64,000 nucleotides of DNA from an uncultured Planctomycetales bacterium (GTDB lineage Bacteria; Planctomycetota; MHYJ01; JACPRB01): positions 5,945-69,944 of the forward strand of contig CAYXVY010000140.1 in NCBI GenBank assembly GCA_964468745.1. The letters are read 5' to 3'. Each line of letters begins with the position of its first letter. Position 1 is the stretch's first letter. The translations under genes were made by a program, and so were the position numbers. Positions 1,853 to 55,025 of this stretch are shown here, one piece after another. Below the pieces are notes generated by a model. It did not search any database. It worked only from the letters and a program-made list of their open reading frames with translations, and was not told the origin of the DNA.

Positions 1853-1858
1853 ATTATA
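1853..1858 (-). promoter_or_regulatory. -10 box (CCTATAATC) with TTGCCC -35 18 nt upstream, driving a leaderless rimO transcript
   Basis: Minus-strand sequence reads cgcccCTATAATcgtcccccc-TTG, and a TTGCCC lies 18 nt upstream of the TATAAT. Confidence 0.5.
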
Positions 1859-1895
1859 GGGGCGATCGCACGGCGGGGGCAACAGGGATGCCCGA

Positions 1896-2495
1896 CTACG
1901 CCTTAAACGTGATCCAGCCGTCCTCCTCGACACGCCAGCCGAGATCCCCTGCGTGCTCCTTGAGGGTTGCAAGGAGACGTCGCGAGGCGGTGTTCTGTCC
2001 GGTCCCCACCCGGGCCCCCGTGATGCCGGGCGACCGCGCCGCATACGCGACGAAGTCCAGAAGCATCATCACCGACAAACCCTGGCCGACATGCGATTCA
2101 TCTACAGCAACCGAGAAGCCGTGCAGCTTCGTCGCGTGACGCTGAAAAAAGACATGCCCGAGGACGATGTCCCCCTTTGGGTATATGAAACCGTCGTACC
2201 CCCGCCACAGCATGACGCGCCAGAGCAGCGCTCCCGGCATCCAGCGCACCCACCGCGTCCGGGTATGGAATCGACCGCCCTCCATGGGATGTCGTATGCA
2301 CGACAGGATGTACTCGCGCACGATTTGAGTCGATCGGCTAACAGGGTCGCTGGCAAGCCACGGCGGCGGCACCTCAAGCGCATCCGTATCGCGCGCGATC
2401 ACCTGCCTCGCGAGCCAGCGCACGTCCGCCCGCCCGGGCCCGGCGCACGGGGATCCGGAAGCATCATCCGCTCGCACTTGGTCCCGCGCAGTCAA
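1896..2495 (-). CDS. Putative GNAT-family N-acetyltransferase (hypothetical)
   Basis: ORF 1896..2519(-). C-terminal half has GNAT-like HVGQGLS...LGW motifs. A minus-strand TATAAT (2503-2508) lies inside the first codons of the track ORF, so the real start is probably the TTG at 2493-2495, 7 nt after the -10 (leaderless). Confidence 0.4.
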   Translation of the reverse strand: MTARDQVRADDASGSPCAGPGRADVRWLARQVIARDTDALEVPPPWLASDPVSRSTQIVREYILSCIRHPMEGGRFHTRTRWVRWMPGALLWRVMLWRGYDGFIYPKGDIVLGHVFFQRHATKLHGFSVAVDESHVGQGLSVMMLLDFVAYAARSPGITGARVGTGQNTASRRLLATLKEHAGDLGWRVEEDGWITFKA

Positions 2496-2502
2496 GGGGC
2501 GG

Positions 2503-2508
2503 ATTATA
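2503..2508 (-). promoter_or_regulatory. -10 box (CCTATAATC) with TTGCTC -35; leaderless start of the GNAT-like gene
   Basis: Minus-strand sequence reads TTGCTC-n18-TATAAT-ccgcccc-TTG. It is the same CCTATAATC-GCCCC module seen at rimO, cysD and the FmdB-like gene. Confidence 0.5.
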
Positions 2509-2574
2509 GGCGCGCTCACAGCGAGGGAGCAAACCCGATTGCCCCCGAAGCCGCTCGCGACTATGCTCCTCGCG

Positions 2575-3351
2575 ATGAATGAGCGGTCACTGCTCTGCGT
2601 GGCGCATCCGGGACACGAGCTGCGCGTCTACGGCTGGCTGGCGCAAGCGCGTCCCATCGTGTGCGTCGTCACCGACGGTTCGGGACGCTCGGGGCGCTCG
2701 CGCATCGAGGCCACACGCGAGACGCTCCTCGAGACGGGGTGCGTCGTCGGGCCCGTTTTCGCGCCGCTCACCGATGCGGATGCCTATCGCGCCGTCACCA
2801 CGGCCGACGCCGCACCGTTCATCCGCATCATCGACGACCTGGTCCGTACGATCGTCGAATGTGACATTCGATGCCTCGTGGGGGACGCCGCCGAAGGATA
2901 CAACCCGGCCCACGACGTCTGCCGCCTCATCCTCAACGGCGCCGGAGAAGCGTGTCGGCGGAGGGGGCATGCGCTGCGAAACCTCGAATTTCCCCTGTTC
3001 GGCGATCCCGCCGCGTGCCCCGACGCGCTTCGCTCGCAGGCCGTCGAATTGCGCCTCAGCGAGGCAATGTTCGAGGCGAAGCTCAAGGCGGCGCGACGCG
3101 AGGCGGATCTCGGCGTCGATGTGGACCAGGCGCTGCGCGAGGCGGGCGCCGACGCTTTCCGCTGCGAAGTCCTGCGGCCCTGCCTCACCACGGGCCCGAC
3201 TGACGGACTCCCGGACGCACCGACCGTCTACGAGCGATACGGCGAGGGGAAGGTGGCGGAAGGCAAGTACGCGACGGTGATCCGGCGACGTGAGCACGTG
3301 CTTCCCTTGGCGGCCGCCCTATGGCGTCACGCGGAGAGCGCCGGCCCATGA
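2575..3351 (+). CDS. PIG-L / LmbE-family N-acetylglucosaminyl deacetylase-like protein
   Basis: ORF 2539..3351(+). LLCVAHPGHELRVYGW near the N-terminus resembles the AHPDDE motif of PIG-L/LmbE deacetylases. The start is uncertain (2539 or 2575). The stop overlaps the next start (ATGA at 3348-3351). Confidence 0.5.
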   Translation: MNERSLLCVAHPGHELRVYGWLAQARPIVCVVTDGSGRSGRSRIEATRETLLETGCVVGPVFAPLTDADAYRAVTTADAAPFIRIIDDLVRTIVECDIRCLVGDAAEGYNPAHDVCRLILNGAGEACRRRGHALRNLEFPLFGDPAACPDALRSQAVELRLSEAMFEAKLKAARREADLGVDVDQALREAGADAFRCEVLRPCLTTGPTDGLPDAPTVYERYGEGKVAEGKYATVIRRREHVLPLAAALWRHAESAGP

Positions 3352-5426: not shown

Positions 5427-5472
5427 GTGCTTCCCGAACGCCGCCGGTTCGCTTGATATACTCCGCTGCTGA

Positions 5473-6185
5473 ATGTCGTCTCCCCCGATCAGGATCTCCA
5501 TCGACGTCTCGCACACGTTGACCCACGGCGCCTCGACGGGGATCCAGCGCATCGTACGGAACGTCGCGCGATGGGCCGCGGAAGCAGGCGAGGACGCGGG
5601 GATCGAGGGCCGCCCCATCGTCGTGGACAACCGCAGATCCCGCCGCCCGCGGTGGCCGTACGCCCACGTCCCCTTCATTTCGGCGATAGTAGCCGGCACC
5701 CCGCTACCCCCGGCATCTGCCGAACGCCCAGGCCAGGGAACAAGAAGCGCGGGCACACGCGCCGCAAGCCGTGCGAATCCTGCAGGCAGTTTATGAACGT
5801 CACGAGTCCATTGCGCTGGCTGGGTACCCAGTGGACGCGGCTTAAAGAAGAAGGCTTGGCCGCACGAACCTTGGCGCTGGGCAAAAAACTTTTGAGACCC
5901 GTGCTGCGCGGCTGCTTCCGCTTTGCCGGTTCACGCCCGCGCCTGAAACGGGCAGGCGCACGGCTGGCAAGAAATTCCGGCCTGTATGGGCCTCTGCATT
6001 CGCTGTACCTGCGCTTATCCGGCAAGGCCCTTCCGGTCGCGATCCTGGATCACGAGCTGCTGTTCAATGACGATGCGGAGGAAACCTCGCCCGCCAGGAT
6101 GCCGGGGAAACTGACCCTCGACGAACTCCTTTCGCGCATTCGCGCGGAACTGGCAGACCCCAAGAAACAGGGACAGCCACGGTGA
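5473..6185 (+). pseudogene. Frameshifted, truncated N-terminal fragment of a GT4 glycosyltransferase; a paralog of the 50311..51639 gene
   Basis: Two ORFs in different frames (5473..5796 and 5793..6185) resemble the N-terminal domain of the GT at 50311..51639 (ISIDVSHTLTHGASTGIQRIVRNVARW vs LIECTASFTSGLNTGVQRVMRGLANN; LLRPVLRGCFRFAGSRPRLKRAG vs LRAVLPSGVARSVIRTLKRAE). No catalytic C-terminal domain follows. The AT-richer block begins near 5800. Confidence 0.4.
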
Positions 6186-11804: not shown

Positions 11805-11967
11805 GGCGGAGATCTCGTGAAAAGAGGAACGCCTTATATCCGATCGCGCGCGCAGCTTCCAGCGGCGCCGGTTCCGCGCCCGTCACTGGGCGACACGGCG
11901 AACCCGGGGCGATTGCGCAACGGTGGCACGGGAACAAGGCGGCTTGCGAACGTGTTATAATGCGCTC

Positions 11968-12168
11968 ATGGCCGGACAGTGGAAAGAGCGCATGGAGCGC
12001 ATGGGCCGCGCGAACGAAGAGGCGCGCTTGGAGTACCTTCGATCGCTGACCCCTGAAGCGGCTGCGCGGGTGCTCGAAGGCATCCTTGCGCATCCCATCG
12101 CGCCGCCGCGTCCGCGCGCCGATCATCCGGTTTCTCTCTCCCGCCGCATGCGCTCACGGCACGCTTGA
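11968..12168 (+). CDS. Small hypothetical protein (66 aa), leaderless
   Basis: TATAAT at 11956-11961 sits 6 nt upstream of the ATG at 11968, in frame with track ORF 11923..12168. No SD sequence. Function unknown. Confidence 0.3.
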   Translation: MAGQWKERMERMGRANEEARLEYLRSLTPEAAARVLEGILAHPIAPPRPRADHPVSLSRRMRSRHA

Positions 12169-14557: not shown

Positions 14558-15367
14558 TTACATGTATCCGGAGGTGCGAAGACGCTCGAACGCGTCCTCC
14601 GATTCCTGGTCCTGTGCTCGGCCCGATCTCTCGCTCGTCTTCGTGCGCCGCAGCTCCTCGACGATCTCCGCGACGCTCGTGGCGGTGGACTCGATCATGC
14701 CGGTGCACGGCGCGCATCCGAGGCTGCGGTAGCGGCGTCCGTCCTTCGCGTAGTAGAGGTCGATGATCGGGATCGACTCGCGCTGGATGTACTCCCACAC
14801 GTTGAGTTCGGTCCAGTGGAGCAGCGGATGAATGCGTATGTGCGTGCCGGCCGGGAATTCGGTCTGGTACTGGTCCCAGAATTCCGGGGGCGCGTCGCCG
14901 AAGTTCCACGTGAGGTTCTTGTCGCGCGGCGAGAAGTAGCGCTCCTTCGCGCGCGTGCTCTCCTCGTCGCGGCGGATGCCGAGGAGCAGGCCGTGATACC
15001 CCTTGAGTTCGAGGACCTGCTTGAGGCCCTCCGTCTTGAGCGAGGAGCAGCAGACGACGCGGCCGAGGGTGTGGTTCATCCCGCCGGCGAGGGCGGCGAC
15101 GTTCTTGCCGACCACGAGGTCGAGCCCCAGCTCCTTCGCGACGCGGTCGCGGTACTCGATCATCGACGGGATTTTGTAGGTCGTGTCGACGTGGATGACG
15201 GGGAACGGGACGGCGCCGAAGAATGCCTTGCGGATGAGCCAGAGCAGGACGGTCGAATCCTTGCCGATCGACCAGAGGCACCCGAGGTTTTTCAGCTTCG
15301 CGCGCGCCTCGCGGATGATGTAGACGCTCTGCGCTTCGAGGGCGTCCAAGGGGTCGCGGTGAGCCAT
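14558..15367 (-). CDS. cysD: Sulfate adenylyltransferase subunit 2 (CysD; PAPS reductase-like ATP sulfurylase small subunit)
   Basis: ORF 14558..15367(-). [12 protein letters not shown] (PP-loop), LGIRRDEE, and overall CysD architecture. The ATG is preceded by TTGAGA-n17-TATAAT-n11. Confidence 0.9.
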
Positions 15368-15378
15368 AAGAGGGGCAG

Positions 15379-15384
15379 ATTATA
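15379..15384 (-). promoter_or_regulatory. -10 box (CCCCTATAATC) with TTGAGA -35 for cysD
   Basis: Minus-strand sequence reads TTGAGAccgcgcgcgcctgcccCTATAATctgcccctctt-ATG(15367). Confidence 0.55.
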
Positions 15385-15486
15385 GGGGCAGGCGCGCGCG
15401 GTCTCAATGGCTGCGCGCGCGTGGGACGTGTGAGGTTGGAGCTTTGAAGGGCGGAACGCGGAACGGTGACCCACCCTTCCAACGAC

Positions 15487-15924: not shown

Positions 15925-16137
15925 CTAGACGATCAGGATGTCCTCGGTCGGCACCTTCAACAGGACCGGCTGGCGGCGCGGATGCCGCTTACGCGCTCGC
16001 TCGACGACCGTGCGCGCATTCTTTCCGGACGCCGCAACGCGGCAGTCGACGATGGCGACGTACAACCCCCGATATCGACTGAGGTCCGTACGCGACAGCC
16101 ACTCCATCGTCGGGTCCATTTTTCTCGCGGCTCCCAT
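15925..16137 (-). CDS. Small protein partner of the retropepsin-like protease (DUF-type, ~70 aa)
   Basis: Track ORF 15925..16230(-). A TAGAAT -10 at 16145-16150 sits 7 nt upstream of the internal ATG at 16137 (MGAARKMD...GLYVAIVDCRVAASGKNARTVVERARKRHPRRQPVLLKVPTEDILIV). It is immediately upstream of, and co-oriented with, the protease gene. Confidence 0.4.
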   Translation of the reverse strand: MGAARKMDPTMEWLSRTDLSRYRGLYVAIVDCRVAASGKNARTVVERARKRHPRRQPVLLKVPTEDILIV

Positions 16138-16202
16138 CGGCGTTATTCTACTGCGCCGCTTTATGGCGGGGTAGCGGATTCCATTCGGGGTAAGGAACGG
16201 TG

Positions 16203-16872
16203 ATCCGCACCTTCCACCTTCCAACCTCAAACCTCAAACTCCTGCCCCAGTCCCCACCCCGCCTCCGCTCCGCGCCCCACGTCACTCCGCGCTTCCTTGG
16301 CGCGCTCCGCGTTTTCTTCGGGAAGTCCCGGGATGAAGTCACCCGCGGGGTATCCGTTCGCCGCAGACCTTCCGGATTCAACGCAGAGGTCGCTGAAGGA
16401 TTTGGATGGGGGCGAAGTTTTTCCTCCACCATTCCAATGTCCTCTCGGTTACCTCGGCTGCCTCGGTGTTGTCGGAGGGGTGGGGCAGCAGGCGGAAACC
16501 TCGTGGATGACACTGGGCAATCCGAGCAAACAGAGAAGCCCATCCATGCGAGGGCGTTCCCTGCTCCTCCCCTGCGCGCTCCGCGCTTTCTTCGGATAGT
16601 CCCGGGATGAAGTCGCACGCGGAGTATCAATCCGCCTCAGAATGACCCGCACCTTCCAACTTCCAACTTCCAACTTCAAACCTCAAACGCCTCCCCCACT
16701 CCCCATCCCGCCTCCGCTCCGCGCCCCCAGCCACTCTTGTCCTCCTCAGCGGGCTCCGCGTTTTCTTCGGATAGTCCCAGGATGAAGTCGCACGCGGGGT
16801 ATCCGTTCGCCTCAGAATGACCCACACCTTCCAACTTCCAACTTCCAACCTCAAACCTTAGACTCGTCCCCC
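16203..16872. repeat. Tandem array of a ~173-bp repeat (3 full or partial copies plus a fourth partial copy running into the wzm start codon); copy 2 is interrupted by a ~185-bp insert
   Basis: Unit landmarks ccgcaccttccaac(ttccaac)n ctcaaac...ccgcctccgctccgcgcccc...gcgctccgcgttttcttcggatagtcccgggatgaagtcgcacgcggggtatccgttcgcctcagaatgacc recur at ~16203, 16563 (tail only), 16647 and 16820. Each unit has internal heptad microrepeats TTCCAAC x2-3 and CTCAAAC x2. Confidence 0.85.
16859..16864 (+). promoter_or_regulatory. TAGACT -10-like box 8 nt upstream of the wzm ATG (leaderless-type)
   Basis: ccttAGACTcgtccccc-ATG(16873) with no SD. The same TAGACT-n8/9-start arrangement occurs at fcl (47400) and gmd (about 48417). 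Confidence 0.4.
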
Positions 16873-17628
16873 ATGCCCTCCTGGTTCGAGCTCCTGCGCG
16901 CGCTCGTCGCGAAGGACTTCAAGGTCCGCTACAAGAGCACGGCGCTGGGGTTCGTGTGGTCGATCGCGAACCCGGTCATGTTCGGCCTGACGTTCTACGT
17001 GGTCTTCGAGAACGTCTTCCGCGGCGGGCAGAAGAACTTCCTCGTCTTCCTGCTCGCGGGGATGTTCCCGTGGCAGTGGTTTGCGAGCACCGTGGGCGGC
17101 GCGCCCGGCACGTTCGTCGGCAACGCGGGCCTGATCAAGAAGGTCCGGTTCCCGTGGATGCTGCTCCCGACGGCGGCCCTTGTCAGCAACCTCCTGCACT
17201 TCCTGCTGGCGCTGGCGGTGGCCGTCCCGCTCCTCGGGATGAAGGGGATCTGGCCGACACCGGTCTGGCTGATCGGCATTCCGGCCCTGCTCCTCATCCA
17301 GGGGGCGCTGACACTGGGAGTCGCGCTGCTGATCGCATCGATCAACGTCATCTTCCGCGACCTCGAGTACATCACGCAGATCGTGCTGCAGTTGGTATTC
17401 TTCCTCACGCCGATCTTCTACTCGGCAACGGCGCTGCCGGAGGGGACGCGGTCGATCCTGCGCTGGAATCCGATGTGCTACGTGATTCCGGCGTGGCAGG
17501 AGCTGGTGCTGGAGGGCCGCATGCCCTGGCAGACGGCGGGGATCGGCGCGGCGATCGCGGCGGCGACGTTGCTGATCGGCTACGGAGTCTATCGACGGAT
17601 GGAGTGGCGGCTGGCGGAGTCGCTATAG
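16873..17628 (+). CDS. wzm: ABC-2 type polysaccharide export permease (Wzm/TagG/KpsM-like)
   Basis: 251 aa, 6 predicted TM segments, ABC-2 family signature region (FVWSIANPVMFGLTFYVVF...). Confidence 0.8.
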   Translation: MPSWFELLRALVAKDFKVRYKSTALGFVWSIANPVMFGLTFYVVFENVFRGGQKNFLVFLLAGMFPWQWFASTVGGAPGTFVGNAGLIKKVRFPWMLLPTAALVSNLLHFLLALAVAVPLLGMKGIWPTPVWLIGIPALLLIQGALTLGVALLIASINVIFRDLEYITQIVLQLVFFLTPIFYSATALPEGTRSILRWNPMCYVIPAWQELVLEGRMPWQTAGIGAAIAAATLLIGYGVYRRMEWRLAESL

Positions 17629-25945: not shown

Positions 25946-25982
25946 AGGATCGACGCGCCCGATAAGCTCCGCTGGCGAACGA

Positions 25983-27293: not shown

Positions 27294-27412
27294 CCGCGCT
27301 TACCACGCTTTACTGGCATATCGAAAGTCAACGCCTCCGGACTTCGACGCGCGTACGCGCACCATTTCCTGATTCTGTCTCCGGTCTCCTGAATTCTGTA
27401 TCCTCTCCGCAC

Positions 27413-28150
27413 ATGCGCCACCGGTCCGAAGTCGCCTACTTCCAGCCCACCAGCTGGACTGTCGTCGAAGAAGCGCAGGACAAGGCCGGACCCGCGGCGC
27501 GTGCCGCCTACGAACGGCTCGCCGCCGGCTACTGGAAACCCACCTTCTTCTTCCTCCGCAAGCGCGGGCTCCGGCGCGAGAACGCCGAAGACGCCACCCA
27601 GGACTTCTTCGCCTACTTCTTCGACCGCGACTTCATCCAGAACGCCGACCCCGCCAAGGGGAAGTTCCGCACCTTCATCATCGCCCACCTCGAAAACTTC
27701 CTCGCCAACCAGCGGCGTAACGCCCACACCGTGCGACGCGGCAAAGGCACCCACACCATCAGCGCCGACTTCGGCGATGCCGAGCAGGAACTCTCCGGCA
27801 TGCCCGCCTCCATCGAAACCGCCGACGCCGTCTTCCTCCGCTCGTGGGCCCTCGAAACGATGGCCAAGGCGTGGGAGCTGCTCCGCCTCAAGATGATCGA
27901 GAGCGGCGAAGGCCACTACTTCGGCCCCCTCCACACCTTCTTCAACAACGTGAAGGACCGGCCCACCCGCGCCCAGCTCGAGGAACAGCTCGGCCTGTCC
28001 TACAAACAAGTCGACCACCTCATCGACGGGACGCGCAAGCAGTTCAAGGATCAGCTCCGCCTCGTCGTCCGTCCCACGGTCGAAAACGAGAGCGAAGTGA
28101 AGGCGGAAATCGTCGCACTCTTCGACGCCCTGGGCGCGACTCAGCCGTAA
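27413..28150 (+). CDS. ECF-type RNA polymerase sigma factor (sigma-70 regions 2 and 4)
   Basis: Region 2 (ENAEDATQDFFAYFF...FRTFIIAHLENFLANQRR) and a region 4 HTH (RAQLEEQLGLSYKQVDHLIDGTRKQFKDQL). 245 aa. Confidence 0.8.
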   Translation: MRHRSEVAYFQPTSWTVVEEAQDKAGPAARAAYERLAAGYWKPTFFFLRKRGLRRENAEDATQDFFAYFFDRDFIQNADPAKGKFRTFIIAHLENFLANQRRNAHTVRRGKGTHTISADFGDAEQELSGMPASIETADAVFLRSWALETMAKAWELLRLKMIESGEGHYFGPLHTFFNNVKDRPTRAQLEEQLGLSYKQVDHLIDGTRKQFKDQLRLVVRPTVENESEVKAEIVALFDALGATQP

Positions 28151-31690: not shown

Positions 31691-31917
31691 CGACCGAAGC
31701 GGAGATCGTTGATCAGGTGGTGCGCGGGGCGAAGTTTGCCCTTCCTGGCCGAGGCCCACGCCCTCTCAATGGCCCGATCGAGAACCATGCGCTCCCGCTG
31801 CGTCAGATCGTCGCCTTCATCGTCCAGGACGAGGTCCAGCGTCGTTCCATCCGGCAGACTCGTCGGCTCATCAAGATGCAAGCGCCCGTTCTTGACGCGT
31901 GCGCGAAGGCTGCCCAT
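31687..31917 (-). CDS. Type II antitoxin (ParD/Phd-like), upstream partner of the ParE-like toxin
   Basis: 76-aa acidic protein (MGSLRARVKNGRLHLDEPTSLPDGTTLDLVLDDEGDD...). Minus-strand TATACT -10 at 31924-31929 sits 6 nt upstream of the ATG at 31917. Confidence 0.55.
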   Translation of the reverse strand: MGSLRARVKNGRLHLDEPTSLPDGTTLDLVLDDEGDDLTQRERMVLDRAIERAWASARKGKLRPAHHLINDLRFGR

Positions 31918-32266
31918 GTCCACAGTATATCAGGGGCGCTCCACGGTTCCAGTTGCGGGACCCGCCCGGGGCCGGTGACCTCCGGCGCGGACGCTAACTC
32001 GCTCGCATGCGGGGTCCTGCCTGATACTCTGCCGTGCCGGCCGGAGTTGCGTCCCGGGGCGCCGGCCTCCCCCATCGTCGTGGGTCTCCATGCTCTTCAG
32101 CGAGCCGTTCTTCCTCTTCCTGCCCCTCCCTCTCACCCTCGCCGCCGCCGGTGCTGAGCCCGGCGTCAGGCCGCTGACGGTCCATCCCCGCCGCACGCGC
32201 GTCGGATCGCCATTCGCCGTCGCTCCGATGAAACGCGAAGCGCGGCGGCGGCAATCGGACGCGCGA

Positions 32267-37990: not shown

Positions 37991-38374
37991 GAGTTCATGA
38001 GTTATAACCAAGCTCCACTGCCGACACCGTCTTGCCCGATCAACACAGAGGAATCCGAGGACACCGAGAAGATTGGGATGGGGTAGTTACGCCCGCTTGG
38101 AGGATACCTCCGGGCTGCGATATTGCGCGCTGCAATGGGATCATCGGACGCGACACCGAGATATCGGAGGGAACCGAGAAGAGGCCGTGGGGGGATCGCA
38201 GACCGCCTCGGTCGCCACGGTGACACGAAGATCTGCCGGCTCCCACGACGAGGAGTGAATGTCCCCTCCAAAAGCCTTCTCGGTTGACTCGGATGACTCG
38301 GTGTTCATCCGCGTCCTGCCGCGCTCATACTCACGTTCTCTGATTTCCGGTCTTCGCATCGGTATAGTGTCTCG

Positions 38375-39463
38375 GTGCCCCGCATCGGGATCAACGCAAC
38401 CTTCATCCACGACCCGCCGACCGGCATCGCCACATATTCCATCCAGGTCGCGCGCCGGCTGCTGCGCAGTCCCGACTATGCGGCGTTCGTATCGTTGCCG
38501 GGTCAGATCGGCCCGGAGAACGACTCCCGCATCCTCGGGACCTACCCGCGCTTCGCCCCCAACGGCCGCGCCTTGACGCATCTGAAGCGGCTCTTCTGGG
38601 AGCAGTTCAGTCTTCCGCGCCTGTCGCGAAAGCACGGACTCGCCCTGATCTATTCCCTGGCGGCGGAGGCGTCCCTGGTGGACTCCATGCCGACGGTGAT
38701 CACGCTCTATGACGTGGTGCAACTCGCGCGGCCCAACTTCTTCCCGAAGCACCGGATCTATCACAGGCGCGTGGTCCCGCGCATCGCGCGCCGCGCGGCC
38801 GCCGTCATCACGATTTCGGAATTCAGCAAGGGGGAGATCGCGCACTACTGCGACGTGCCGCCGGAGCGCATCCACGTTGCCCCGTGCGCCGTGGACCTCG
38901 ACCGGTTTCGGCCGCGTCCGCCGGGGACGCCGCGCGCGCGCTACGGGCGCTTCGTGCTCATGGTTGGCGCGCAGCACCCGCACAAGAACGTGGCGAGAGG
39001 TCTGCGTGCCTTCGATCGGTTGAGCGACGACGATCTCAAGCTCGTGTTGATCGGGGCGCACGACGGCATGGGGATGGAGGAGTCGATCGACGGTCTGCGC
39101 CATCCGGAGCGGATCGTCGCCGCTGGACGCGTGAGCACCGACGAACTCGTCCAGTACTACGCGGATGCGGCGGCATTTCTGTTCCCGTCGCTCTACGAGG
39201 GGTTCGGGTTGCCCCCTCTCGAGGCGATGGCCTGCGGCACGCCCGTGGCGGCGGCGCGTGCGACGGCGCTTCCCGGCACGTGCGGCGACGCGGCGCGGCT
39301 GTTCGATCCGGGTTCCGAGGAGGATATGGCCGAGGCGCTGCGGGAGGTGATCGCCCATCCGCAGCCTTACCGCGAGCGCGGACTGGCGCGTGCGGCCGCG
39401 TTCTCGTGGGACCGTACCGCGCAGACGATAGACGCGGTGCTGCGCGCCGTGACCAACGATTGA
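38375..39463 (+). CDS. Glycosyltransferase family 4
   Basis: GT4 C-terminal signature FLFPSLYEGFGLPPLEAMACGTPVAAARATALPGTCGDAARLFDP. Confidence 0.8.
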   Translation: MPRIGINATFIHDPPTGIATYSIQVARRLLRSPDYAAFVSLPGQIGPENDSRILGTYPRFAPNGRALTHLKRLFWEQFSLPRLSRKHGLALIYSLAAEASLVDSMPTVITLYDVVQLARPNFFPKHRIYHRRVVPRIARRAAAVITISEFSKGEIAHYCDVPPERIHVAPCAVDLDRFRPRPPGTPRARYGRFVLMVGAQHPHKNVARGLRAFDRLSDDDLKLVLIGAHDGMGMEESIDGLRHPERIVAAGRVSTDELVQYYADAAAFLFPSLYEGFGLPPLEAMACGTPVAAARATALPGTCGDAARLFDPGSEEDMAEALREVIAHPQPYRERGLARAAAFSWDRTAQTIDAVLRAVTND

Positions 39464-43569: not shown

Positions 43570-43599
43570 CAAGGAACGCGAAAACCCGTCCTTATTGCC

Positions 43600-46496: not shown

Positions 46497-46504
46497 GCCG
46501 CGAA

Positions 46505-47335
46505 TCAGAGTTCGCTCTTCACGGCGTCGATCATGTCCGCGAGGGTGGCGCGCAGATCGTGCCGAGGACGCCAGCCGGTCGCCCGGCGCAGCCGGGTCGC
46601 ATCCCCCACCTGGACGTCCGCCGGCCGCAGACGACGGGGATCCTGGACGACCCGCACGCTCCTGCCGGAGAGCCGGATGAGCGTGTCGAGAAGGTCGCCG
46701 ATCCTCCAGCCGCGCCCGGAGGCGATGTTATACGTTTCGCCCCGCCGGCCGCGCTCGATGAGCAGCCGGTAGGCGGCAACGACGTCGCGCACGTCGAGGA
46801 AATCGCGAACCGAGTCGAGCTGGCCGACGCGCACGACGGGCCCGGTCACGACCTGCCGGGCGAACGACCCACACACGAACGATTCCTTCTGGCCCGGGCC
46901 GGTGTGGTTGAAGGGACGCGCGATCACCACATCGAGACGATCCTGGGCGCGCGCGACCGCCTCCGCCATCACCTTGCTCCACGCGTACGGATTGCGAGGG
47001 TCGAGGGGATCCGTCTCGCGGATCGGGCGGCCGACGAGCCGGTAGATCTCGGCCGAGCTCACGATGAGGACGCGTCCGCCGAACCCCTCGAGCGCCTCCA
47101 GAAGACGCGCCGTGCCGAGCGTGTTGATCTCGAACGTCTCGTCCGGACTCAGGCGCGACTGACCGGGGTGCGACTTTGCGGCCAGATGGAAGACAGCGTC
47201 GCCCCGGAAGCCGCGCGCCCTGCGCGGATCGCGGATATCGCCCTGAAGGAGGGTGACGCGCGAGCCCGCCTCGCGCAAGGCCGCGACGAGATGGCGTCCC
47301 ACGAAGCCGTTGCCCCCCGTCACCAGCGCATGCAT
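46505..47335 (-). CDS. NAD(P)-dependent epimerase/dehydratase-family reductase, short form (Rmd-like GDP-4-keto-6-deoxy-D-mannose reductase candidate)
   Basis: MHALVTGGNGFVGRHL (Rossmann GxxGxxG), YAWSK (YxxxK), 276 aa. Divergent from fcl and next to gmd. Confidence 0.55.
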   Translation of the reverse strand: MHALVTGGNGFVGRHLVAALREAGSRVTLLQGDIRDPRRARGFRGDAVFHLAAKSHPGQSRLSPDETFEINTLGTARLLEALEGFGGRVLIVSSAEIYRLVGRPIRETDPLDPRNPYAWSKVMAEAVARAQDRLDVVIARPFNHTGPGQKESFVCGSFARQVVTGPVVRVGQLDSVRDFLDVRDVVAAYRLLIERGRRGETYNIASGRGWRIGDLLDTLIRLSGRSVRVVQDPRRLRPADVQVGDATRLRRATGWRPRHDLRATLADMIDAVKSEL

Positions 47336-47414
47336 GCGAAGCGGAACTGTAGCACACGCGGGCCGACAGTGTTCGCTTCAACCCGTGCACCTCGCGGGAT
47401 AGACTGACTGCCCC

Positions 47415-48395
47415 ATGGCCGAGATTCTGAAATTCGATGCGCGCATCTTCGTAACGGGACACTTGGGTCTCGTCGGCTCCGCCATCCTGCGCCGGCTGCA
47501 GCGCGAGGGGTTTTCGAATCTCCTGACCGCCACGCGGAAGGAGCTCGATCTTCGTGATCAGCACGCAACCGAGACATGGTTCCGCAAGAACCGTCCGGAG
47601 TACGTCTTCCTCGTCGCCGGAACGGTCGGCGGCATTCACGCGAACTCGACGCGCCCCGCGACCTTCCTTTATGACAATCTGATGATTCACGCGACCGTCG
47701 TGCACGCCGCGCACCTGACGGACGTGAAAAAGCTCCTCTATCTCGGCAGCTCGTGCATCTATCCGCGCAACGCGCCGCAGCCGATGCGCGAGGAGTATCT
47801 TCTGACCGGCCCCCTCGAGCCGACGAACGAGGGGTATGCCGTGGCCAAGATCGCCGGCATCAAGATGTGCCAGTTCTACCGCCAGCAGTACGGCCGCAAC
47901 TTCATCTCCGCGATGCCGACGAACGTCTACGGACAGTTCGACAACTTCGACCTGCAGGACGCCCACGTCCTGCCCGCGCTGATCCGCAAGTTTCACGAGG
48001 CCGCGCGCGACACGTCGGGCCAGGTGACGATCTGGGGGTCCGGAACGCCGCGCCGCGAGTTCCTGCATGCCGATGACCTCGCCGAGGCATGCCTCTTTCT
48101 CATGCGCACGTATGAAGACGCCTCCCACGTGAACGTGGGGACCGGGATCGATCTGACAATCCGCGAGCTGGCGGAGACAATCCGTCGCATCGTGTCGCCG
48201 AACGTAAAGCTGGTCTTCGACAGCACCAAGCCCGACGGCATGCCGCGCAAGCTGCTCGACGTCGGCCGCCTGCAAAAACTCGGATGGAGCGCGCGCATCG
48301 GGCTCGAGGACGGCGTCCGCGACACGTACGCGTGGTTCGCAAAGAACTACGACGCGGCGGTGGCGCGCCGGCGATCGCACGCCGCCGTTCCGTAG
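47415..48395 (+). CDS. fcl: GDP-L-fucose synthase (GDP-4-keto-6-deoxy-D-mannose 3,5-epimerase/4-reductase)
   Basis: IFVTGHLGLVGSAILRRL, YAVAKIAG, LTGPLEPTNEGYAVAK, and the overall WcaG/Fcl pattern, ~326 aa. TAGACT -10 sits 9 nt upstream of the ATG. Confidence 0.85.
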   Translation: MAEILKFDARIFVTGHLGLVGSAILRRLQREGFSNLLTATRKELDLRDQHATETWFRKNRPEYVFLVAGTVGGIHANSTRPATFLYDNLMIHATVVHAAHLTDVKKLLYLGSSCIYPRNAPQPMREEYLLTGPLEPTNEGYAVAKIAGIKMCQFYRQQYGRNFISAMPTNVYGQFDNFDLQDAHVLPALIRKFHEAARDTSGQVTIWGSGTPRREFLHADDLAEACLFLMRTYEDASHVNVGTGIDLTIRELAETIRRIVSPNVKLVFDSTKPDGMPRKLLDVGRLQKLGWSARIGLEDGVRDTYAWFAKNYDAAVARRRSHAAVP

Positions 48396-48430
48396 CGGAA
48401 CTCGCGCGCGGGTGTTAGACTTCGCCCCTC

Positions 48431-49396
48431 GTGAAACGGGCGCTGATCACCGGCATCACCGGTCAGGACGGGTCGCACCTCGCCGACCTTCTCCTCGAGA
48501 AGGGGTACGAAGTGCACGGCATGGTGCGCCGCTCCAGCACGGAGAACTTCGAGCGCATCGCGCATCTCACGCACCGGGTGACGCTGCACCAGGCCGACCT
48601 TCTCGACCAGCTCTCGATCATCGACATGATCCAGACTGTCCGGCCGAAGGAGGTGTACAACCTCGCCGCGCAGTCGTTCGTTCCGATCTCGTGGGTCCAG
48701 CCGGTCCTCACCGCCGAGTACACGGCGCTGGGCGCCACCCGGGTCCTCGAGGCAATCCGTCTGGTCGATCCCAAGATCCGCTTTTACCAGGCGTCGTCGA
48801 GCGAGATGTTCGGGAAAGTCCTCGAGACCCCGCAGAAGGAGTCGACGCCGTTCTATCCGCGCAGCCCGTACGGCGTCGCCAAGTGCTACGCGCACTTCCT
48901 CACGGTGAACTACCGCGAGAGCTACAACCTGTTCGCGTGTTCGGGAATCCTGTTCAACCACGAAGGTCCGCGGCGCGGCCGCGAGTTCGTCACCCGGAAG
49001 ATCACACACGCGGTCGCCGAAATCAAGCTGGGCCGCCGCAAGAACCTGGCGCTCGGAAACCTCGATGCGCGCCGCGACTGGGGATTCGCGGGGGACTACG
49101 TCCGCGCCATGTGGCTGATGCTCCAGCTGAAGAAGCCCGACGATTTCGTCATCGCCACGGGACGGTCCCACACCGTCCGCGAGTTCTGCGACATCGCCTT
49201 TGCGCACGCCGGGCTCGACTGGCGGAAGCACGTCGTCGTGGACCGCAAGCTCTACCGTCCCGCGGAGGTGCACACGCTCTGCGGCGACGCGTCCAAGGCG
49301 CGACGCAAGCTGGGCTGGAAGCCAGCGGTGGGGTTCGAAGCGCTCGTGCACATGATGGTGGACGCGGATCTCGAGAGGCTGGGCCGCACGTCCTGA
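48431..49396 (+). CDS. gmd: GDP-mannose 4,6-dehydratase
   Basis: [33 protein letters not shown]...[37 protein letters not shown] is the Gmd signature. GTG start. Confidence 0.9.
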
Positions 49397-50314: not shown

Positions 50315-51639
50315 GGCGACGCTCCGCCGGCGGGCGGCACCAGGCTCAGGGCCGTGCGCAGGAAGTCCTCGCAGGATTCCTGCCAGGTGCACTGCCGGAA
50401 GGACGCGCCGCTGCCACGCTCCGCGGCTGGCGCCAAGAGCAAGTCGGCCAGCGTGGACGCCGAATCGAGCGGGAAATACGTGCACGCCTCGCCCCCCACC
50501 TCGCGATGCACGGGCGTGTCGCTCGCGAGGACGCGCAGTCCGCGTCCCAGCGCCTCGGCGATCGGGAGTCCGTACCCTTCATGCGTGGACGGGAAGACGA
50601 GCCCGCGGGCATTCCCGTACGCGTAGGTCAGCTCGTCGTCGGTCGCATCGTTGATCATGAACAACCGGTGGCCCAGCTCGCCGTGTCGCTGGATGCGATC
50701 CACGGTTTTCTGCGACAGCGGGTTGATCCGTCCCAGGATGCACAGTCGCGCGTCGCCGCCCTGCTTCCAGAGGGCGTCGAACGCGTCGAGAAGAAAGGCG
50801 TGATTCTTCCTCGGCTCGATGCTGCCGACGGCGATCCAAGGCTGCGGCGAGCTCTCGAAGACTTGGCGCAAGTCGGCACGGACGGCGGACGCCGACGCCG
50901 GATCCGCACGATCGAGGGTCGCGGCGAGTCGAAAGGCCTCGGCGCGGAGCGGCCTCGCGTCTCCCTGCGACTGCTCGCGGAGCCAGGCCCGAAGGTCGTC
51001 GCGCGTCCAGCGCGAGATCGTCAGGCAGAAATCGACGTTCGGCATGACGGCGTCGAACCACTGGCGGTAGTCGGCGACGATGCCGGCGGGCAGCAGTTCC
51101 GGGGCGCGCAGCGGGATGAGATCGTAGAGGACGCATCCGACTGTCGCGCGCGAGGCGCGTAACGTGTCGAAGACGCTGTCGAAGGGGAGGTGCCACGAAA
51201 TGTCGGCGAGAATGACGATGTCCTGCTGCGTCAGCACGAGCGTCGACTCGCGGTCCCCCGACCGGCTTCGCGTTTCGGCGCGCTTCAACGTGCGGATGAC
51301 GGATCGCGCGACCCCGGAGGGCAGGACGGCGCGCAGCGTTCGTCCCGCGATCTCGCGCAGCCGCTGGCGCTTCGAGAGCGAGGGGGACGAAAGCGAAAGT
51401 CCGTCGATCGCGTGAAACGCGCCGTCGGAGAAGACGACGGGGCGGCAGTCGATCCCGAGCGAGCGGCCCACCTCGACGCAGTTGTTCGCGAGGCCGCGCA
51501 TGACGCGCTGCACGCCCGTGTTCAATCCTGACGTGAAGCTGGCCGTGCACTCGATGAGGACGCGCCGCACGGACGGGGTCGCACCGGGGCGGAGCTGCAT
51601 GGGCAGTCGCTTATACACCGAGACTCGCCGCGGGGACAA
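50311..51639 (-). CDS. Glycosyltransferase family 4 (WbdA/mannosyltransferase-like, with an N-terminal ...TG.QRV... domain)
   Basis: N-terminus VLIECTASFTSGLNTGVQRVMRGLANN. C-terminus VFPSTHEGYGLPIAEALGRGLRVLASD. Confidence 0.8.
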   Translation of the reverse strand: MSPRRVSVYKRLPMQLRPGATPSVRRVLIECTASFTSGLNTGVQRVMRGLANNCVEVGRSLGIDCRPVVFSDGAFHAIDGLSLSSPSLSKRQRLREIAGRTLRAVLPSGVARSVIRTLKRAETRSRSGDRESTLVLTQQDIVILADISWHLPFDSVFDTLRASRATVGCVLYDLIPLRAPELLPAGIVADYRQWFDAVMPNVDFCLTISRWTRDDLRAWLREQSQGDARPLRAEAFRLAATLDRADPASASAVRADLRQVFESSPQPWIAVGSIEPRKNHAFLLDAFDALWKQGGDARLCILGRINPLSQKTVDRIQRHGELGHRLFMINDATDDELTYAYGNARGLVFPSTHEGYGLPIAEALGRGLRVLASDTPVHREVGGEACTYFPLDSASTLADLLLAPAAERGSGASFRQCTWQESCEDFLRTALSLVPPAGGASP

Positions 51640-51719
51640 GTCGGGGCGGGTCGCGCGGAAGCCGCCGGTCGGAAGTCTTGCCGCACGTCCGTCGCGTCCC
51701 TATAATCGCCCCCGACGAC

Positions 51720-52073
51720 ATGCCCACATACGACTACGGGTGTGCCGCGTGCGGGCACGTCTTCGAGGTGTTTGAGAAGATCAACGATGGAGGAACGAAG
51801 GCCTGTCTGAAGTGCGGCAAGAGGCGCGCCAAGCGGCGCATCGGCGCCGGCGCGGGCGTGATCTTCAAGGGAAGCGGCTTCTACGCCACCGACTCCAAGG
51901 AGTCCTCGAAGGCCCCCTCCACCGGCGGGGACAAGAAGAAGACGACGCGAAAGACGACCGAGACCAAGACCGAAACAAAGACCGAGACTAAGCCCGAGAC
52001 GAAGACCGAGGCCAAGTCCGAGGCAAAGACCGAGTCGAAACCCGAGAAAACAGAAAAGACGGAGAAACGATGA
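51720..52073 (+). CDS. FmdB-family zinc-ribbon protein with Lys/Thr/Glu-rich repetitive C-terminal tail
   Basis: MPTYDYGCAACGHVFEV...CLKCG (CxxC...CxxC), then KKKTTRKTTETKTETKTETKPETKTEAKSEAKTESKPEKTEKTEKR. TATAAT at 51701-51706 sits 13 nt upstream of the ATG (CCCTATAATCGCCCCC module) with TTGCCG -35. Confidence 0.6.
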   Translation: MPTYDYGCAACGHVFEVFEKINDGGTKACLKCGKRRAKRRIGAGAGVIFKGSGFYATDSKESSKAPSTGGDKKKTTRKTTETKTETKTETKPETKTEAKSEAKTESKPEKTEKTEKR

Positions 52074-53503
52074 GAGACCTGAAAGGGGACTGGCGCGATC
52101 TCTTCAATGGGTTCATGCTGGCGCTCGACCTGCGCAAGATGTTCCTAGGACTTTGCGCGATCCTCTTCACCGTTTTCGGCCCGCTCGGGTTTACATGCTG
52201 GATCGCCAACAAGATCGACGCCGGCGCCGTGAACGCCCCGCAGACGTTCGTCCTCGGCGAGATCTGGGGGACGATTTGCCAGTCGTGGCACGTCATCTAC
52301 AGCGGCACGTCCGGTCATCCCGCGGACTGGAAGCTCTACATCCCCTATAGCCTCCTGTTTGTCACGTCGGTGCTTGCGATCTGGGCCTATTTCGGCGGCG
52401 CGATCGCGCGCAACGCGGCGTACGAGATCGGACGCGACGGCGAGCGCATCGAGACGGCCCGCGCGCTCGGATTCGCCGGTAAGAAGTTCTGGTCCTTCTT
52501 CATGTCGCCGTGGATCTGCGTCATCGGCGCCCTCTTCTTCTTCCTCTGCAACTTCGCGGGGGGCGCGCTCGGCCGGGTCCTGGACCTGGCGTGGATCGGC
52601 GGTCCCATCGTGGCGCTGCTCCTGCCGCTGGCGCTCCTCTCCGGATTCATCATGACGCTCATCTCCGTGGGCACCGTCGCGGGATTCCCGCTCTTCGCCC
52701 CCGCGGTGGCGGCCGAGGGAACCGACGCGTTCGACGCCGTGAGCCGCGGCTTCAGCTACGTGTACTCGCGGCCGTGGCACTATCTGTGGTACCAGGTCGC
52801 GGGGTCGCTGTACGGAGTCGTCTGCTCATCGTTCGTCATCCTCTTCGCGATCCTGATGTGCCATTTCGGACTGCAGGCGGGGGCGGCGGGCTTCGACACC
52901 TTTGCCGTCGAGGAAACGCCCCAAGCTCCGGCGAGTCCGGCGGACAACGCGACGCCGGCGGAGCGCGACAAGTTCAAGCAGGCGATGGACGCCTGGCACA
53001 AGCGCCGCATCGAGCAGCCAAAGGACTTCGAGGAGAAGAACGACCGGTTCCAGGACATCGCGAACACGGCGTGGGCGAAGATCCTCAGTCGCGAACACGC
53101 CACGCAGCAGTACGGATGGTGCCCGTCGGATCTTGCGAACAATCTCGACCCGTACGGCCGCCTGATGAACCTCGCGAATTGCATCGTGAAGCCGAACCAC
53201 ATGATGCACGTGGACGCGCTCAACACGAAATTCCACAAGGTCGCGGCGTGGCTCGTCATGGCGTGGCTCGTGATCACGCTCGGGCTCGCGCTGGGCTACA
53301 TCCCCAGCTACGTGATCTCCCACCAGACGATCATCTACTTCCTGCTGCGCAAGAAGGTGGACGGGATCGAGATGAACGAAGTCTACGAGGAGCCGGAGGA
53401 GGGCCGGGGCGGAGAGCCCGTTGCCGCGTCCGACAAGCCCGCGCCGCCGCCCGCAGCCGACGCGAAACCGGCGCCGCCGCCGGAGCAGAAACCGCCTGCG
53501 TAG
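52070..53503 (+). CDS. Hypothetical integral membrane protein (translationally coupled to the FmdB-like gene)
   Basis: 477 aa with several TM helices and a Pro/Ala/Lys-rich C-terminus. ATGA overlap with the upstream stop. Confidence 0.5.
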   Translation: MRDLKGDWRDLFNGFMLALDLRKMFLGLCAILFTVFGPLGFTCWIANKIDAGAVNAPQTFVLGEIWGTICQSWHVIYSGTSGHPADWKLYIPYSLLFVTSVLAIWAYFGGAIARNAAYEIGRDGERIETARALGFAGKKFWSFFMSPWICVIGALFFFLCNFAGGALGRVLDLAWIGGPIVALLLPLALLSGFIMTLISVGTVAGFPLFAPAVAAEGTDAFDAVSRGFSYVYSRPWHYLWYQVAGSLYGVVCSSFVILFAILMCHFGLQAGAAGFDTFAVEETPQAPASPADNATPAERDKFKQAMDAWHKRRIEQPKDFEEKNDRFQDIANTAWAKILSREHATQQYGWCPSDLANNLDPYGRLMNLANCIVKPNHMMHVDALNTKFHKVAAWLVMAWLVITLGLALGYIPSYVISHQTIIYFLLRKKVDGIEMNEVYEEPEEGRGGEPVAASDKPAPPPAADAKPAPPPEQKPPA

Positions 53504-53765
53504 TCCCTGGTCCCTGGTAGTTGGTTCTTAGTCGCGTTGCGCGCGACCCGCTCGCGTCCACAGAGACCGAGGCGCACGTACGACTCCGTGCACATTTCCG
53601 ACGATCGAAGTGCGATGCGGTCGTGAGGGTCGGTCGTCATACGCGTAGCCGGGGGACAGGACGATGGAAGCAACCATCGATCGCGCTCTCGGTACCTTCG
53701 TCGAGGCCGCCCGCAGCTTCGCCAGCAAACGTGCGAAAGCGTCGCGTCGATCCTAGAATGCGCCC

Positions 53766-55025
53766 GTGCACTGGCTCACTTTTCTCAAGGTGACCGTCGT
53801 TTTCATCGCGGTCGTCTATGCGATGAAGAAGAAGGTCCCGATGGGCCTCGCCCTGTCGGGGGGCGGACTCGCGATCGCGCTTCTGATGGGCTTCGGCCCT
53901 CGCTGGATCCTCGACCAGCTCGCCGGAGGGGACGCGATCCTCTTCTCGACGCACACCTGCGAGTTCGTGGCCGTGATGGGCCTGACCGTGTCGCTCTCGT
54001 TCGTTCTCGAGCGGTCACGGCAGATCGAACGGCTCACCAACGCGTTCCGCACGAGCTTCTCGAATCCGCGCGTGACGCTGGCGACGCTCCCCGCGATCAT
54101 CGGGCTGCTGCCGATGCCCGGCGGCGCGCTCTTCTCCGCGCCGATGGTCGAGGCGGCGGCGACCGGCACCGGCCTCGACGGCGAGGAAAAGGCCCTCATC
54201 AATTACTGGTACCGCCACGTCTGGGAGTACGCGTGGCCGCTCTACCCCGGCATCATTTACTCCGCGCAGCTCATGCACCGCGAGATGCGCGAGGTCGCGC
54301 TCGCCCAGTTTCCACTGTGCATCGTGGCGATCGTCGGCGGTTTCCTATTCCTGCGTCGCGCCACCGCTCCTCCCGTCCCTCGCGAAAGCGCCCCGCGCCG
54401 TCAGGCGGCGCTCGACATCTTCATCGCGCTTCTCCCGTTCGCGATCATCACCGTCACGCACCTCGTCGCGAAGCTGAACATCGTCGCCTCCGTCGGCCTG
54501 GGATTCGGTGTCGCGAGCCTCTGGCTTCTCGGCACGCGCGCGATCGGATTTCGCACGCTCCTCAAGACCGTCTTCGCGAACTGGGGCGTGCTCGAGATGA
54601 TGCTCATGGGGTACGGCGCGAAGATCTTCGGCGACCTCATGATGCGCGCGGGGGCGATCGACGGCATCTCGGCGCTGCTGCAATCGATGAACCTGCCCGT
54701 CATCCTGCTCGCGATCGCGCTCCCGTATGCCGTCGGCTTCTTCGCGGGGATGACAATCGTCTACGTCATGACGGCGCTGCCGGTGCTGCTCACCTTCCCG
54801 GAGGTCTCCGCGAATCCGCTGCCGTTCTTCGTCCTCGCGTTCGCGGCCGGGTACTGCGGCACGCTGATGTCCCCCATCCACGCGTGCCTTGTGCTCTCGG
54901 CGAAGTACTTCAAGAGCGACCTGCTGCGGCCGATCTATCGCATGGCGCTGCCGTGCCTGGCGCTCGTCCTCACCGGCCTCGCGCTCTTCTTCGTCTACCG
55001 GCGATTCCCCATTACCCTTTCGTAG
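53766..55025 (+). CDS. Polytopic membrane protein (DUF401-like putative permease)
   Basis: 419 aa, ~10-12 TM. GTG start 6 nt after a TAGAAT -10 (53754-53759). Confidence 0.45.
   Translation: MHWLTFLKVTVVFIAVVYAMKKKVPMGLALSGGGLAIALLMGFGPRWILDQLAGGDAILFSTHTCEFVAVMGLTVSLSFVLERSRQIERLTNAFRTSFSNPRVTLATLPAIIGLLPMPGGALFSAPMVEAAATGTGLDGEEKALINYWYRHVWEYAWPLYPGIIYSAQLMHREMREVALAQFPLCIVAIVGGFLFLRRATAPPVPRESAPRRQAALDIFIALLPFAIITVTHLVAKLNIVASVGLGFGVASLWLLGTRAIGFRTLLKTVFANWGVLEMMLMGYGAKIFGDLMMRAGAIDGISALLQSMNLPVILLAIALPYAVGFFAGMTIVYVMTALPVLLTFPEVSANPLPFFVLAFAAGYCGTLMSPIHACLVLSAKYFKSDLLRPIYRMALPCLALVLTGLALFFVYRRFPITLS

Follow-up and report, generated by a model that had tools for sequence, protein, structure and literature searches.

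The mycobacterial work of Shell et al. in 2015 and of Cortes et al. in 2013 is said to have found about a quarter or more of transcripts to be leaderless, with the transcription start site (TSS) placed experimentally on the start codon. The corresponding arrangement of promoter and gene has been described for TA-led genes (PMC3160421) and for the GeneMarkS-2 group C genomes (PMC6028130). In these Actinobacteria and Deinococcus-Thermus, a TANNNT or TATAAT hexamer lies about 10 nt before first-in-operon starts that lack a Shine-Dalgarno sequence (SD), internal genes retain the SD, 25–60% of operons are affected, and mis-annotated starts are a known consequence (PMC3160421; PMC6028130; PMC4007540). 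The spacers of published leaderless genomes are 6–8 nt long (PMC6028130), and in differential RNA sequencing of D. deserti leaders of 0–3 nt were counted as leaderless and found to be translated (PMC4007540). A single genome had led to the inference that Planctomycetes make little use of the SD and may have a leaderless or RPS1 signal (PMC5397173), and in the literature searched we found no TSS maps or leaderless reports specific to Planctomycetota, Gemmata or Verrucomicrobia. Here we analyse a 64,000-nt stretch of DNA (the window; positions 5,945 to 69,944 of contig CAYXVY010000140.1, assembly GCA_964468745.1) from an uncultured Planctomycetales bacterium, in which hexamers of the same kind stand immediately before many start codons. 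We put at roughly 80% the probability that the mRNAs concerned are leaderless or nearly so, with sigma70-type promoters set directly against the start codons. The architecture itself is known; what is new is its instance in an uncultured Planctomycetota lineage.

The window shares with the TA-led and group C genomes the hexamers before SD-less operon heads and the retention of the SD by internal genes. It differs from them in its spacers, which centre on 9 nt and are strongly C-rich whereas theirs are of 6–8 nt, and in its -10 hexamers, whose middle positions are informative (TATAAT, TAGAAT, TAGACT) whereas the high-GC groups show a bare TAnnnT. Two of its starts are furthermore TTG, and its TSS are predicted from sequence. 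Mycobacteria resemble it in their high-GC genome and in having the -10 immediately before ATG or GTG, but their -35 is usually unrecognisable, whereas the window has a clear TTGNNN or TGn at many promoters and a longer spacing.

The G+C content of the window is 65%, and the majority of its genes, about 52 in number, have cell-envelope polysaccharide functions (many glycosyltransferases, wzm/wzt, gmd, fcl); cysDN, rimO and a run of HEAT-repeat lipoproteins are also encoded. The closest relatives of its RimO (68–82% identity) are proteins from metagenome-assembled genomes (MAGs) labelled Planctomycetes or Planctomycetota, and a protein identical to the fcl product is found in two Logan assemblies; sequencing runs SRR9952630 and SRR9952632 contain this species. 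Nineteen genes, roughly half of the operon heads, are promoter-proximal. An earlier note on this DNA had cited 12 pairs of -10 hexamer and start codon, 6–13 nt apart and without an SD; all of them are present, the tally of hexamers given there (TATAAT five times, TAGAAT twice, TAGACT three times, TATAAC and TATACT once each) is exact, and we add seven further pairs. The 19 promoters and starts are the following, with the -10 to start spacer in nucleotides:

1841..1882, minus strand: rimO promoter and start; TTGCCC-18-TATAAT-cgtcccccc-TTG; start 1843, spacer 9
2493..2532, minus strand: GNAT-like (unnamed) gene; TTGCTC-18-TATAAT-ccgcccc-TTG; start 2495, spacer 7
2539..2577, plus strand: LmbE-like gene (added); TTGCCC-17-TATGCT-cctcgcg-ATG; start 2575, spacer 7
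5454..5475, plus strand: glycosyltransferase-like N-terminal fragment (added); TGa-TATACT, 10 nt, ATG; start 5473; coding score weak
11953..11970, plus strand: 66-aa open reading frame (ORF); extended -10 TGt-TATAAT-gcgctc-ATG; start 11968, spacer 6
15365..15407, minus strand: cysD; TTGAGA-17-TATAAT-ctgcccctctt-ATG; start 15367, spacer 11
16135..16150, minus strand: DUF5678 'protease partner'; TAGAAT-aacgccg-ATG; start 16137, spacer 7
16859..16875, plus strand: wzm (ABC-2 permease); TAGACT-cgtccccc-ATG; start 16873, spacer 8
27399..27415, plus strand: sigma-factor-like gene (added); TATCCT-ctccgcac-ATG; start 27413, spacer 8
31915..31932, minus strand: antitoxin of a ParE pair; TGa-TATACT-gtggac-ATG; start 31917, spacer 6
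37988..38006, minus strand: GT2+PMT_2 (GT-C) fusion; TATAAC-tcatgaactc-ATG; start 37990, spacer 10
38363..38377, plus strand: GT4 glycosyltransferase (added); TATAGT-gtctcg-GTG; start 38375, spacer 6
47333..47354, minus strand: NAD-dependent epimerase (added); TGc-TACAGT-tccgcttcgc-ATG; start 47335, spacer 10
47400..47417, plus strand: fcl; TAGACT-gactgcccc-ATG; start 47415, spacer 9
48413..48433, plus strand: gmd; TGt-TAGACT-tcgcccctc-GTG; start 48431, spacer 9
51598..51639, minus strand: GT4 glycosyltransferase (added); TTGTCC-18-TATAAG-cgactgccc-ATG; start 51600, spacer 9
51678..51722, plus strand: FmdB-like Zn-ribbon gene; TTGCCG-17-TATAAT-cgcccccgacgac-ATG; start 51720, spacer 13
53754..53768, plus strand: DUF401 gene; TAGAAT-gcgccc-GTG; start 53766, spacer 6
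55991..56008, plus strand: gene of an 860-aa protein (added, beyond the range of the earlier note); TATAAT-tcgctgcca-ATG; start 56006, spacer 9

A TAGAAT at 26258 on the minus strand is not counted, since the ATG 5 nt on does not share the frame of the methyltransferase ORF, and stops interrupt the ORF at that place. The 'GNAT-like' label, which we keep for convenience, is without Pfam support.

The position of the hexamers goes beyond chance. Exact TATAAT occurs six times in the window against 1.28 expected, a number reached by none of 100 shuffles, and all six copies lie 6–13 nt before an ATG or TTG. For -10-like hexamers more widely, we took all positions in the non-coding stretch 5′ of each called gene and scored in-frame ATG, GTG or TTG codons 5–13 nt downstream; since this upstream-region test considers every in-frame candidate start, the motif does not choose the starts. 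Of the 30 strong -10-like hexamers in gene-upstream regions, 16 have an in-frame candidate start 5–13 nt further on, as do 9.3% of positions overall (binomial p = 1.3e-9). Scrambled hexamers gave p-values of 0.16–0.57 in the test, and reversed and reverse-complement hexamers, which overlap TATAAT-like sites, gave 8e-4 and 0.05. Over the window and its relatives, the -10 to start distances form a cluster at 6–11 nt, a near-empty interval at 12–16 nt and then background. A Pribnow-type motif is localised upstream of first-in-operon starts above chance, as in TA-led and group C genomes. A first test, which related TANNNT to every in-frame ATG, GTG or TTG, lost power through the internal codons it took in and hardly set the motif apart from permuted patterns, and a rule assigning starts by maximum coding score was dropped, as it misplaced several of them (e.g., those of cysD and the GNAT-like gene). 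Rfam families, searched over the full window with their gathering thresholds, gave zero matches, so the upstream regions are not explained by a riboswitch or leader RNA.

Where the -10 hexamers have partners, these are of the sigma70 type. The TTGNNN -35 at 17–18 nt that the earlier note had reported is confirmed for rimO, the GNAT-like gene, cysD and FmdB, and it recurs at the LmbE-like gene and the GT4 gene starting at 51600, which brings the total to 6 of 19 against a background of 3.6% (p = 3.6e-5; test span 16–19 nt). Five of the 13 promoters without TTGNNN have the extended -10 TGn (p = 3e-4), and 8 of the 19 have neither element. A generic two-hexamer consensus scan returned only four sites in two 20-kb stretches, a count not above that of shuffles; the informative sites are the three with 10–11 of 12 consensus matches, which are those of rimO, cysD (11/12) and FmdB. 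The divergent pairs 2495/2575 (the GNAT-like and LmbE-like genes, 79 nt apart), 47335/47415 and 55938/56006 leave just 67–79 nt between their starts, so that the promoters must abut the starts, with no room for long leaders. These observations support the view that the hexamers are genuine promoter -10 elements abutting starts without an SD.

The TAGACT hexamers at 16859, 47400 and 48416 are those of wzm, fcl and gmd, which are functionally linked through GDP-fucose synthesis and polysaccharide export. Their common hexamer could reflect co-regulation or a shared promoter subtype.

Orthologous promoters, taken from relatives found by protein search and contig look-ups, retain the hexamers. At rimO in four relatives (L125–L128, 74–82% identity) TATAAT, a C-rich spacer of 9–10 nt and an ATG are kept throughout and the flanks have diverged, and rimO of the window has the same geometry with a TTG start. 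Compared with these four close orthologues (position 10001 of L125–L128), the RimO of the window has about 10 extra N-terminal residues. As the promoter-start distance of 9–10 nt is kept, the insertion belongs to the coding region, and a TTG has replaced the ATG as start codon. About 10 orthologues keep the FmdB promoter, TTGACN-17-TATAMT, at 8–22 nt from the ATG: in the closest relative CCCCTATAATCGCC stands 12 nt before the ATG, and more distant ones have TTGACN-17-TATACT or TTGACN-17-TATAAT at 16–22 nt, several of them with a GGAG-type SD. Among these orthologues an SD is found only at distances of at least 17 nt, and none at spacers of 13 nt or less. A unit preserved whole at shifting distances from the ATG is a promoter and not a translation signal. 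Synteny is limited to FmdB and P477, the only two genes conserved together. In DUF401 orthologues TANNNT lies 6–10 nt before the start in three of four cases (TAGTAT-6-GTG in L129, TACCAT-9-GTG in L131, TATAAT-10-ATG in L132), and a wzm orthologue in L125 has TATGGT 13 nt before its ATG. Hexamers kept between diverged flanks, the mark of a phylogenetic footprint, are thus found for rimO, FmdB and DUF401, in relatives at 60–82% protein identity.

Enrichment in the upstream-region test, which was also applied to other loci, is 4.8-fold in the window (p = 8e-7). It is 8.4-fold in metagenome relatives with the FmdB-P477 pair at 55–70% identity (p = 1.5e-4), and in one further set of Planctomycetota MAG loci (L029, L044, L047, L049) it is 2.4-fold and short of significance (p = 0.12). 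Values of 0.8–1.2-fold, not significant, were obtained for Planctomycetota MAGs L004, L007 and L008 and for loci of Verrucomicrobiota, Omnitrophota, Melainabacteria and the Fibrobacteres-Chlorobi-Bacteroidetes (FCB) group, and in P477 relatives at 45% identity or less none of six hexamers was so placed (not significant). A scan of GTDB genomes with rimO, in which retrieval depends on exact 8-mer peptides, yielded relatives at 48% identity or less only, which served as negative-control lineages. Together with the three orthologue sets, the enrichment in relatives of 55–82% identity supports the view that the architecture is a property of the lineage and not of the window alone.

The spacers are distinctive in composition as well as in length. 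Their lengths are 6 nt in four cases, 7 in three, 8 in two, 9 in five, 10 in three, and 11 and 13 in one each, and in the histogram over window and relatives there are peaks at 7 and 10 nt. C makes up 54% of the 19 spacers against 32% of the window (p = 1e-8), purines make up 29%, and in the last 4 nt before the start only 28% are purines (p = 6e-5). GGAG, GAGG and AGGA are found in none of them. The start codons are 14 ATG, three GTG and two TTG, the last at rimO and the GNAT-like gene. The claim that several ORFs had been started too far upstream stands for the rimO TTG and the GTG starts of gmd, DUF401 and GT4, which are backed by public gene calls, by N-terminal alignments to PDB or Pfam entries, or by orthologues. 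Seven of 11 tested starts coincide with public gene calls, namely those of rimO (458 aa, starting at the TTG at 1843), the antitoxin, GT4 at 51600, DUF401, GT4 at 38375, the sigma-factor-like gene and the GT2-PMT fusion. Residue 2 of the gmd product aligns to residues 2–4 of several bacterial GMD structures in the PDB, with no other in-frame start, and the N-terminus of the cysD product aligns to the CysD structure 1zun. In Pfam register, the Rossmann motif of the epimerase begins at residue 3, which pins its start, Zn_ribbon_8 begins at FmdB residue 1, and DUF401 residue 12 aligns to profile position 9. The coding score of the 66-aa ORF is weakly positive.

Genes with an SD form a second class, larger than the minority of three (28832, 58701 and 60123) that had been proposed: at least 13 starts have GGAG, GAGG or GGGAG 2–11 nt upstream, about as many as the 19 promoter-proximal ones. 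They include the overlapping or abutting internal genes 3348, 42037, 50314 and 52070, which have SD-type ribosome binding sites, and the whole lipoprotein cluster at 58.7–64 kb. In SD-led operon heads a -10 lies 17–28 nt upstream, so that leaders are minimal there too. The paralogous HEAT-repeat secreted proteins or lipoproteins of 58701–64000, which have K/E-rich C-terminal tails, all have a canonical GGAG or GGAGG SD, unlike the promoter-proximal genes.

From these positions we infer where transcription begins and how translation is initiated. A housekeeping sigma70-type promoter, with a TATAAT-like -10 and either TTGNNN as -35 at 17–18 nt or TGn, would abut the start, and transcription would begin on the start codon or a few bases away, leaving no 5′ leader or one of up to about 6 nt. 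As such a leader cannot hold an SD, translation would take the leaderless pathway, in which ribosome and initiator tRNA would bind the 5′-terminal or near-terminal AUG or GUG. The classical GGAG-type SD is kept by the genes within operons and by the remaining class of heads. The C-rich, purine-poor spacer would most likely serve as a G-poor discriminator that leaves the purine of the start codon as the first good initiating nucleotide; that it instead provides an oligo-C leader of 1–6 nt is equally possible. In the E. coli promoter rrnB P1, transcription begins 9 nt from the -10, after a non-GGG discriminator rich in G+C. This promoter resembles those described here in the consensus TATAAT followed by a C-rich discriminator, and is a precedent for a TSS beyond 7 nt, but it drives a long leadered rRNA transcript under growth-rate control, and stringent control is not indicated in the window.

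Several points weigh against this account, above all in its strict form. Only 9 of 19 spacers have the strictly leaderless length of 6–8 nt, and their median of 9 nt (range 6–13) exceeds the 6–8 nt of M. tuberculosis (PMC6028130). Were the TSS about 7 nt past the -10, 10 of the 19 genes would have leaders of 3–7 nt and not of zero. At rimO and the GNAT-like gene, the TTG start fits poorly with strict leaderless translation, as TTG did not support it in E. coli or H. volcanii (PMC4007540), and for rimO the relatives have ATG. Four of the 11 tested starts (the GNAT-like gene, the LmbE-like gene, the 66-aa ORF and DUF5678) are not in public gene calls, gmd begins 35 nt past fcl and may be co-transcribed with it, and the rimO-relative loci alone reach only p = 0.013. 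The gene models furthermore come from a simple codon-usage caller written for this analysis, and the sample is one window and about 250 kb of relatives. The proposal of a lineage rich in leaderless mRNAs therefore holds in that -10 hexamers abut SD-less starts lineage-wide, and falls short on strict leaderlessness given the spacer lengths, the TTG starts and the 13 or more SD genes.

The closest alternative keeps the same promoters and places the TSS about 7 nt past the -10, so that only genes with spacers of 6–7 nt would be truly leaderless, and the majority, at 8–13 nt, would have oligo-C leaders of 1–6 nt and be translated by another SD-independent route. It accords with the 6–13 nt distribution in the window, with the two peaks in window and relatives, and with the 9–10 nt spacing of rimO kept in five genomes. 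Leaders of 1–3 nt are translated in D. deserti too, and TTG at rimO and the GNAT-like gene argues against strict recognition of a 5′-terminal start (PMC4007540). What speaks for a start-codon TSS is the scarcity of purines in the last 4 nt, with the A or G of the start often the first purine in reach of the -10. In work on E. coli rrnB P1 and in scrunching studies, C-rich discriminators are reported to shift the TSS downstream. We regard this alternative as possible, if somewhat doubtful, and it differs from leaderless or nearly leaderless expression in degree only.

Extending the leaderless or nearly leaderless reading, we can imagine that leaderless expression of about half of the transcription units arose in this uncultured soil and groundwater Planctomycetota clade separately from Actinobacteria and Deinococcota, with a promoter grammar of its own made up of CC-TATAAT-C and a purine-poor oligo-C spacer of 9–10 nt. 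The C-tract would then either put the TSS on the start-codon purine unusually far (10–11 nt) from the -10, or yield an oligo-C leader of 2–4 nt that is itself recognised for SD-independent initiation, UUG included. We offer this as a speculation that is probably wrong in at least some of its parts.

It is improbable, in our judgement, that the TA-rich hexamers are instead A/U-rich, unstructured or S1-binding translation enhancers in longer leaders made from promoters further upstream, as proposed for the non-SD genes of Bacteroidetes and cyanobacteria. Low SD use had led to Planctomycetes being classed together with these phyla (group B, RPS1-dependent), and their upstream A/T bias was taken as a possible sign of leaderless mRNA or of RPS1 binding (PMC5397173). 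However, the motif of Bacteroidetes and cyanobacteria stands before every gene, those inside operons included, and on leadered mRNAs, whereas that of the window is confined to operon heads, matches a promoter and occurs beside canonical GGAGG SDs. The match to TATAAT is specific, as scrambled A/T hexamers are not enriched, and the hexamers are paired with TTGNNN at 17–18 nt or with TGn. The FmdB unit is kept as its ATG drifts from 8 to 22 nt away, and the divergent pairs at 67–79 nt leave no space for an upstream promoter.

The earlier note had also singled out an extended form, CCCTATAATC-GCCCC, as a recurring module, and CCTATAATC does occur exactly four times in the window, at rimO, the GNAT-like gene, cysD and FmdB. 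Four exact copies, CC...C flanks on four of the six TATAAT (p = 2e-5) and the return of the extended form in relatives at rimO, FmdB and DUF401 might point to a dispersed repeat, or to a binding site for a regulator dedicated to these four genes, in place of a generic promoter core. We give this very little credence: the count of four is by itself not significant, being reached by 17 of 100 shuffles, and the copies have neither terminal repeats nor a longer common unit. When aligned they have only the -35 TTG, the -10 and the C-run in common (12 invariant columns, 59% mean identity), and every copy, those of the relatives included, directly precedes a start, which is not the picture of a dispersed repeat or a REP-like (repetitive extragenic palindromic) or mobile element. 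The four genes are functionally unrelated, and the C-rich spacer is also found at TAGACT, TAGAAT and TATAAG promoters. The supposed module is the consensus -10 and the C-rich discriminator or spacer common to most of these promoters. That A+T-rich intergenic DNA of a 65% G+C genome merely yields functionless TANNNT near starts, for which one could cite the higher A+T content of intergenic DNA and the overall rarity of hexamers with at least 5/6 matches to TATAAT (41 against a Markov prediction of 60), is effectively refuted by the positional enrichment (p = 1e-9 against the within-region background), the scrambled controls without enrichment, the absence of the pattern in control lineages of similar G+C and the hexamers kept in orthologues.

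Other features of the window touch on these promoters or on the genes around them. Short tandem words of 7–9 nt (CTTCCAA three to four times, ACTCATA 3.6 times, GTTATGA four times, CTCGGATGA and CTCTCGGTT) occupy intergenic positions 16653–16681, 16828–16849, 58632–58656, 421–449, 38279–38301 and 62000–62025. They often lie in the -35 region just 5′ of the -10, as at wzm and gene 58701, and similar word repeats are found 5′ of rimO or FmdB in other Planctomycetota loci, L004, L007, L008, L097 and L112. The 273-nt gap between cysD and cysN contains, at 14377–14467, a 40-nt inverted repeat (90% complementary, 11-nt loop) with CGCAGAG words on its flanks, which may be a processing, attenuation or termination structure within the cysDN unit. 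At 29745–29810 a direct duplication of about 28 nt (two copies of CGGCCTTGCGGCCTCGCTCACCATGAAC) doubles the start region of a Ser/Thr kinase gene at its 5′ end and gives it two alternative in-frame ATGs. Only 39 nt separate the divergent starts 34501 (minus strand) and 34541 (plus strand); unless at least one of them has been mis-assigned, the promoter of each gene must be within the coding region of the other.

A tandem array at 28332–28678, in the stretch that separates the sigma-factor-like gene from gene 28832, has 8.3 copies of a 42-nt unit with 78% matches (a period of 126 is also readable); it lies inside a 166-aa ORF (28274–28774, plus strand) that would encode 14-residue repeats of the type ...APASQRTSV.RHD..... 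An island of lower GC (58% against 65%) at 24779–27293 holds a methyltransferase gene on the minus strand and a sulfotransferase gene on the plus strand, both with poor codon-model scores, and these may be horizontally acquired polysaccharide-modification genes. At 5473–7137 glycosyltransferase-like frames appear broken or frameshifted, with a 107-aa N-terminal fragment from 5473, and the ORFs 6182–7954 and 7080–9299 overlap in different frames.

Nothing is overturned by these findings, as the architecture is textbook. For start codons in this clade a promoter-aware model is advisable, since longest-ORF calls overshoot (that of rimO reaches 2044, against the supported start at 1843), and short leaderless ORFs (the antitoxin and the 66-aa ORF, for example) can easily go unnoticed. 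Planctomycetota genetics is young, and TTGCCC-17/18-CCTATAATC-GCCCC-ATG, a compact consensus promoter that also defines the translation start, would serve as an expression part. The unusually long C-rich spacer offers a way to test what keeps the TSS and the start codon aligned with each other. The trait is found in the clade and its relatives and not in the other sampled loci of the Planctomycetes-Verrucomicrobia-Chlamydiae (PVC) group, and it is a further example, beyond the classic phyla, of leaderless initiation being gained or retained by a particular lineage.

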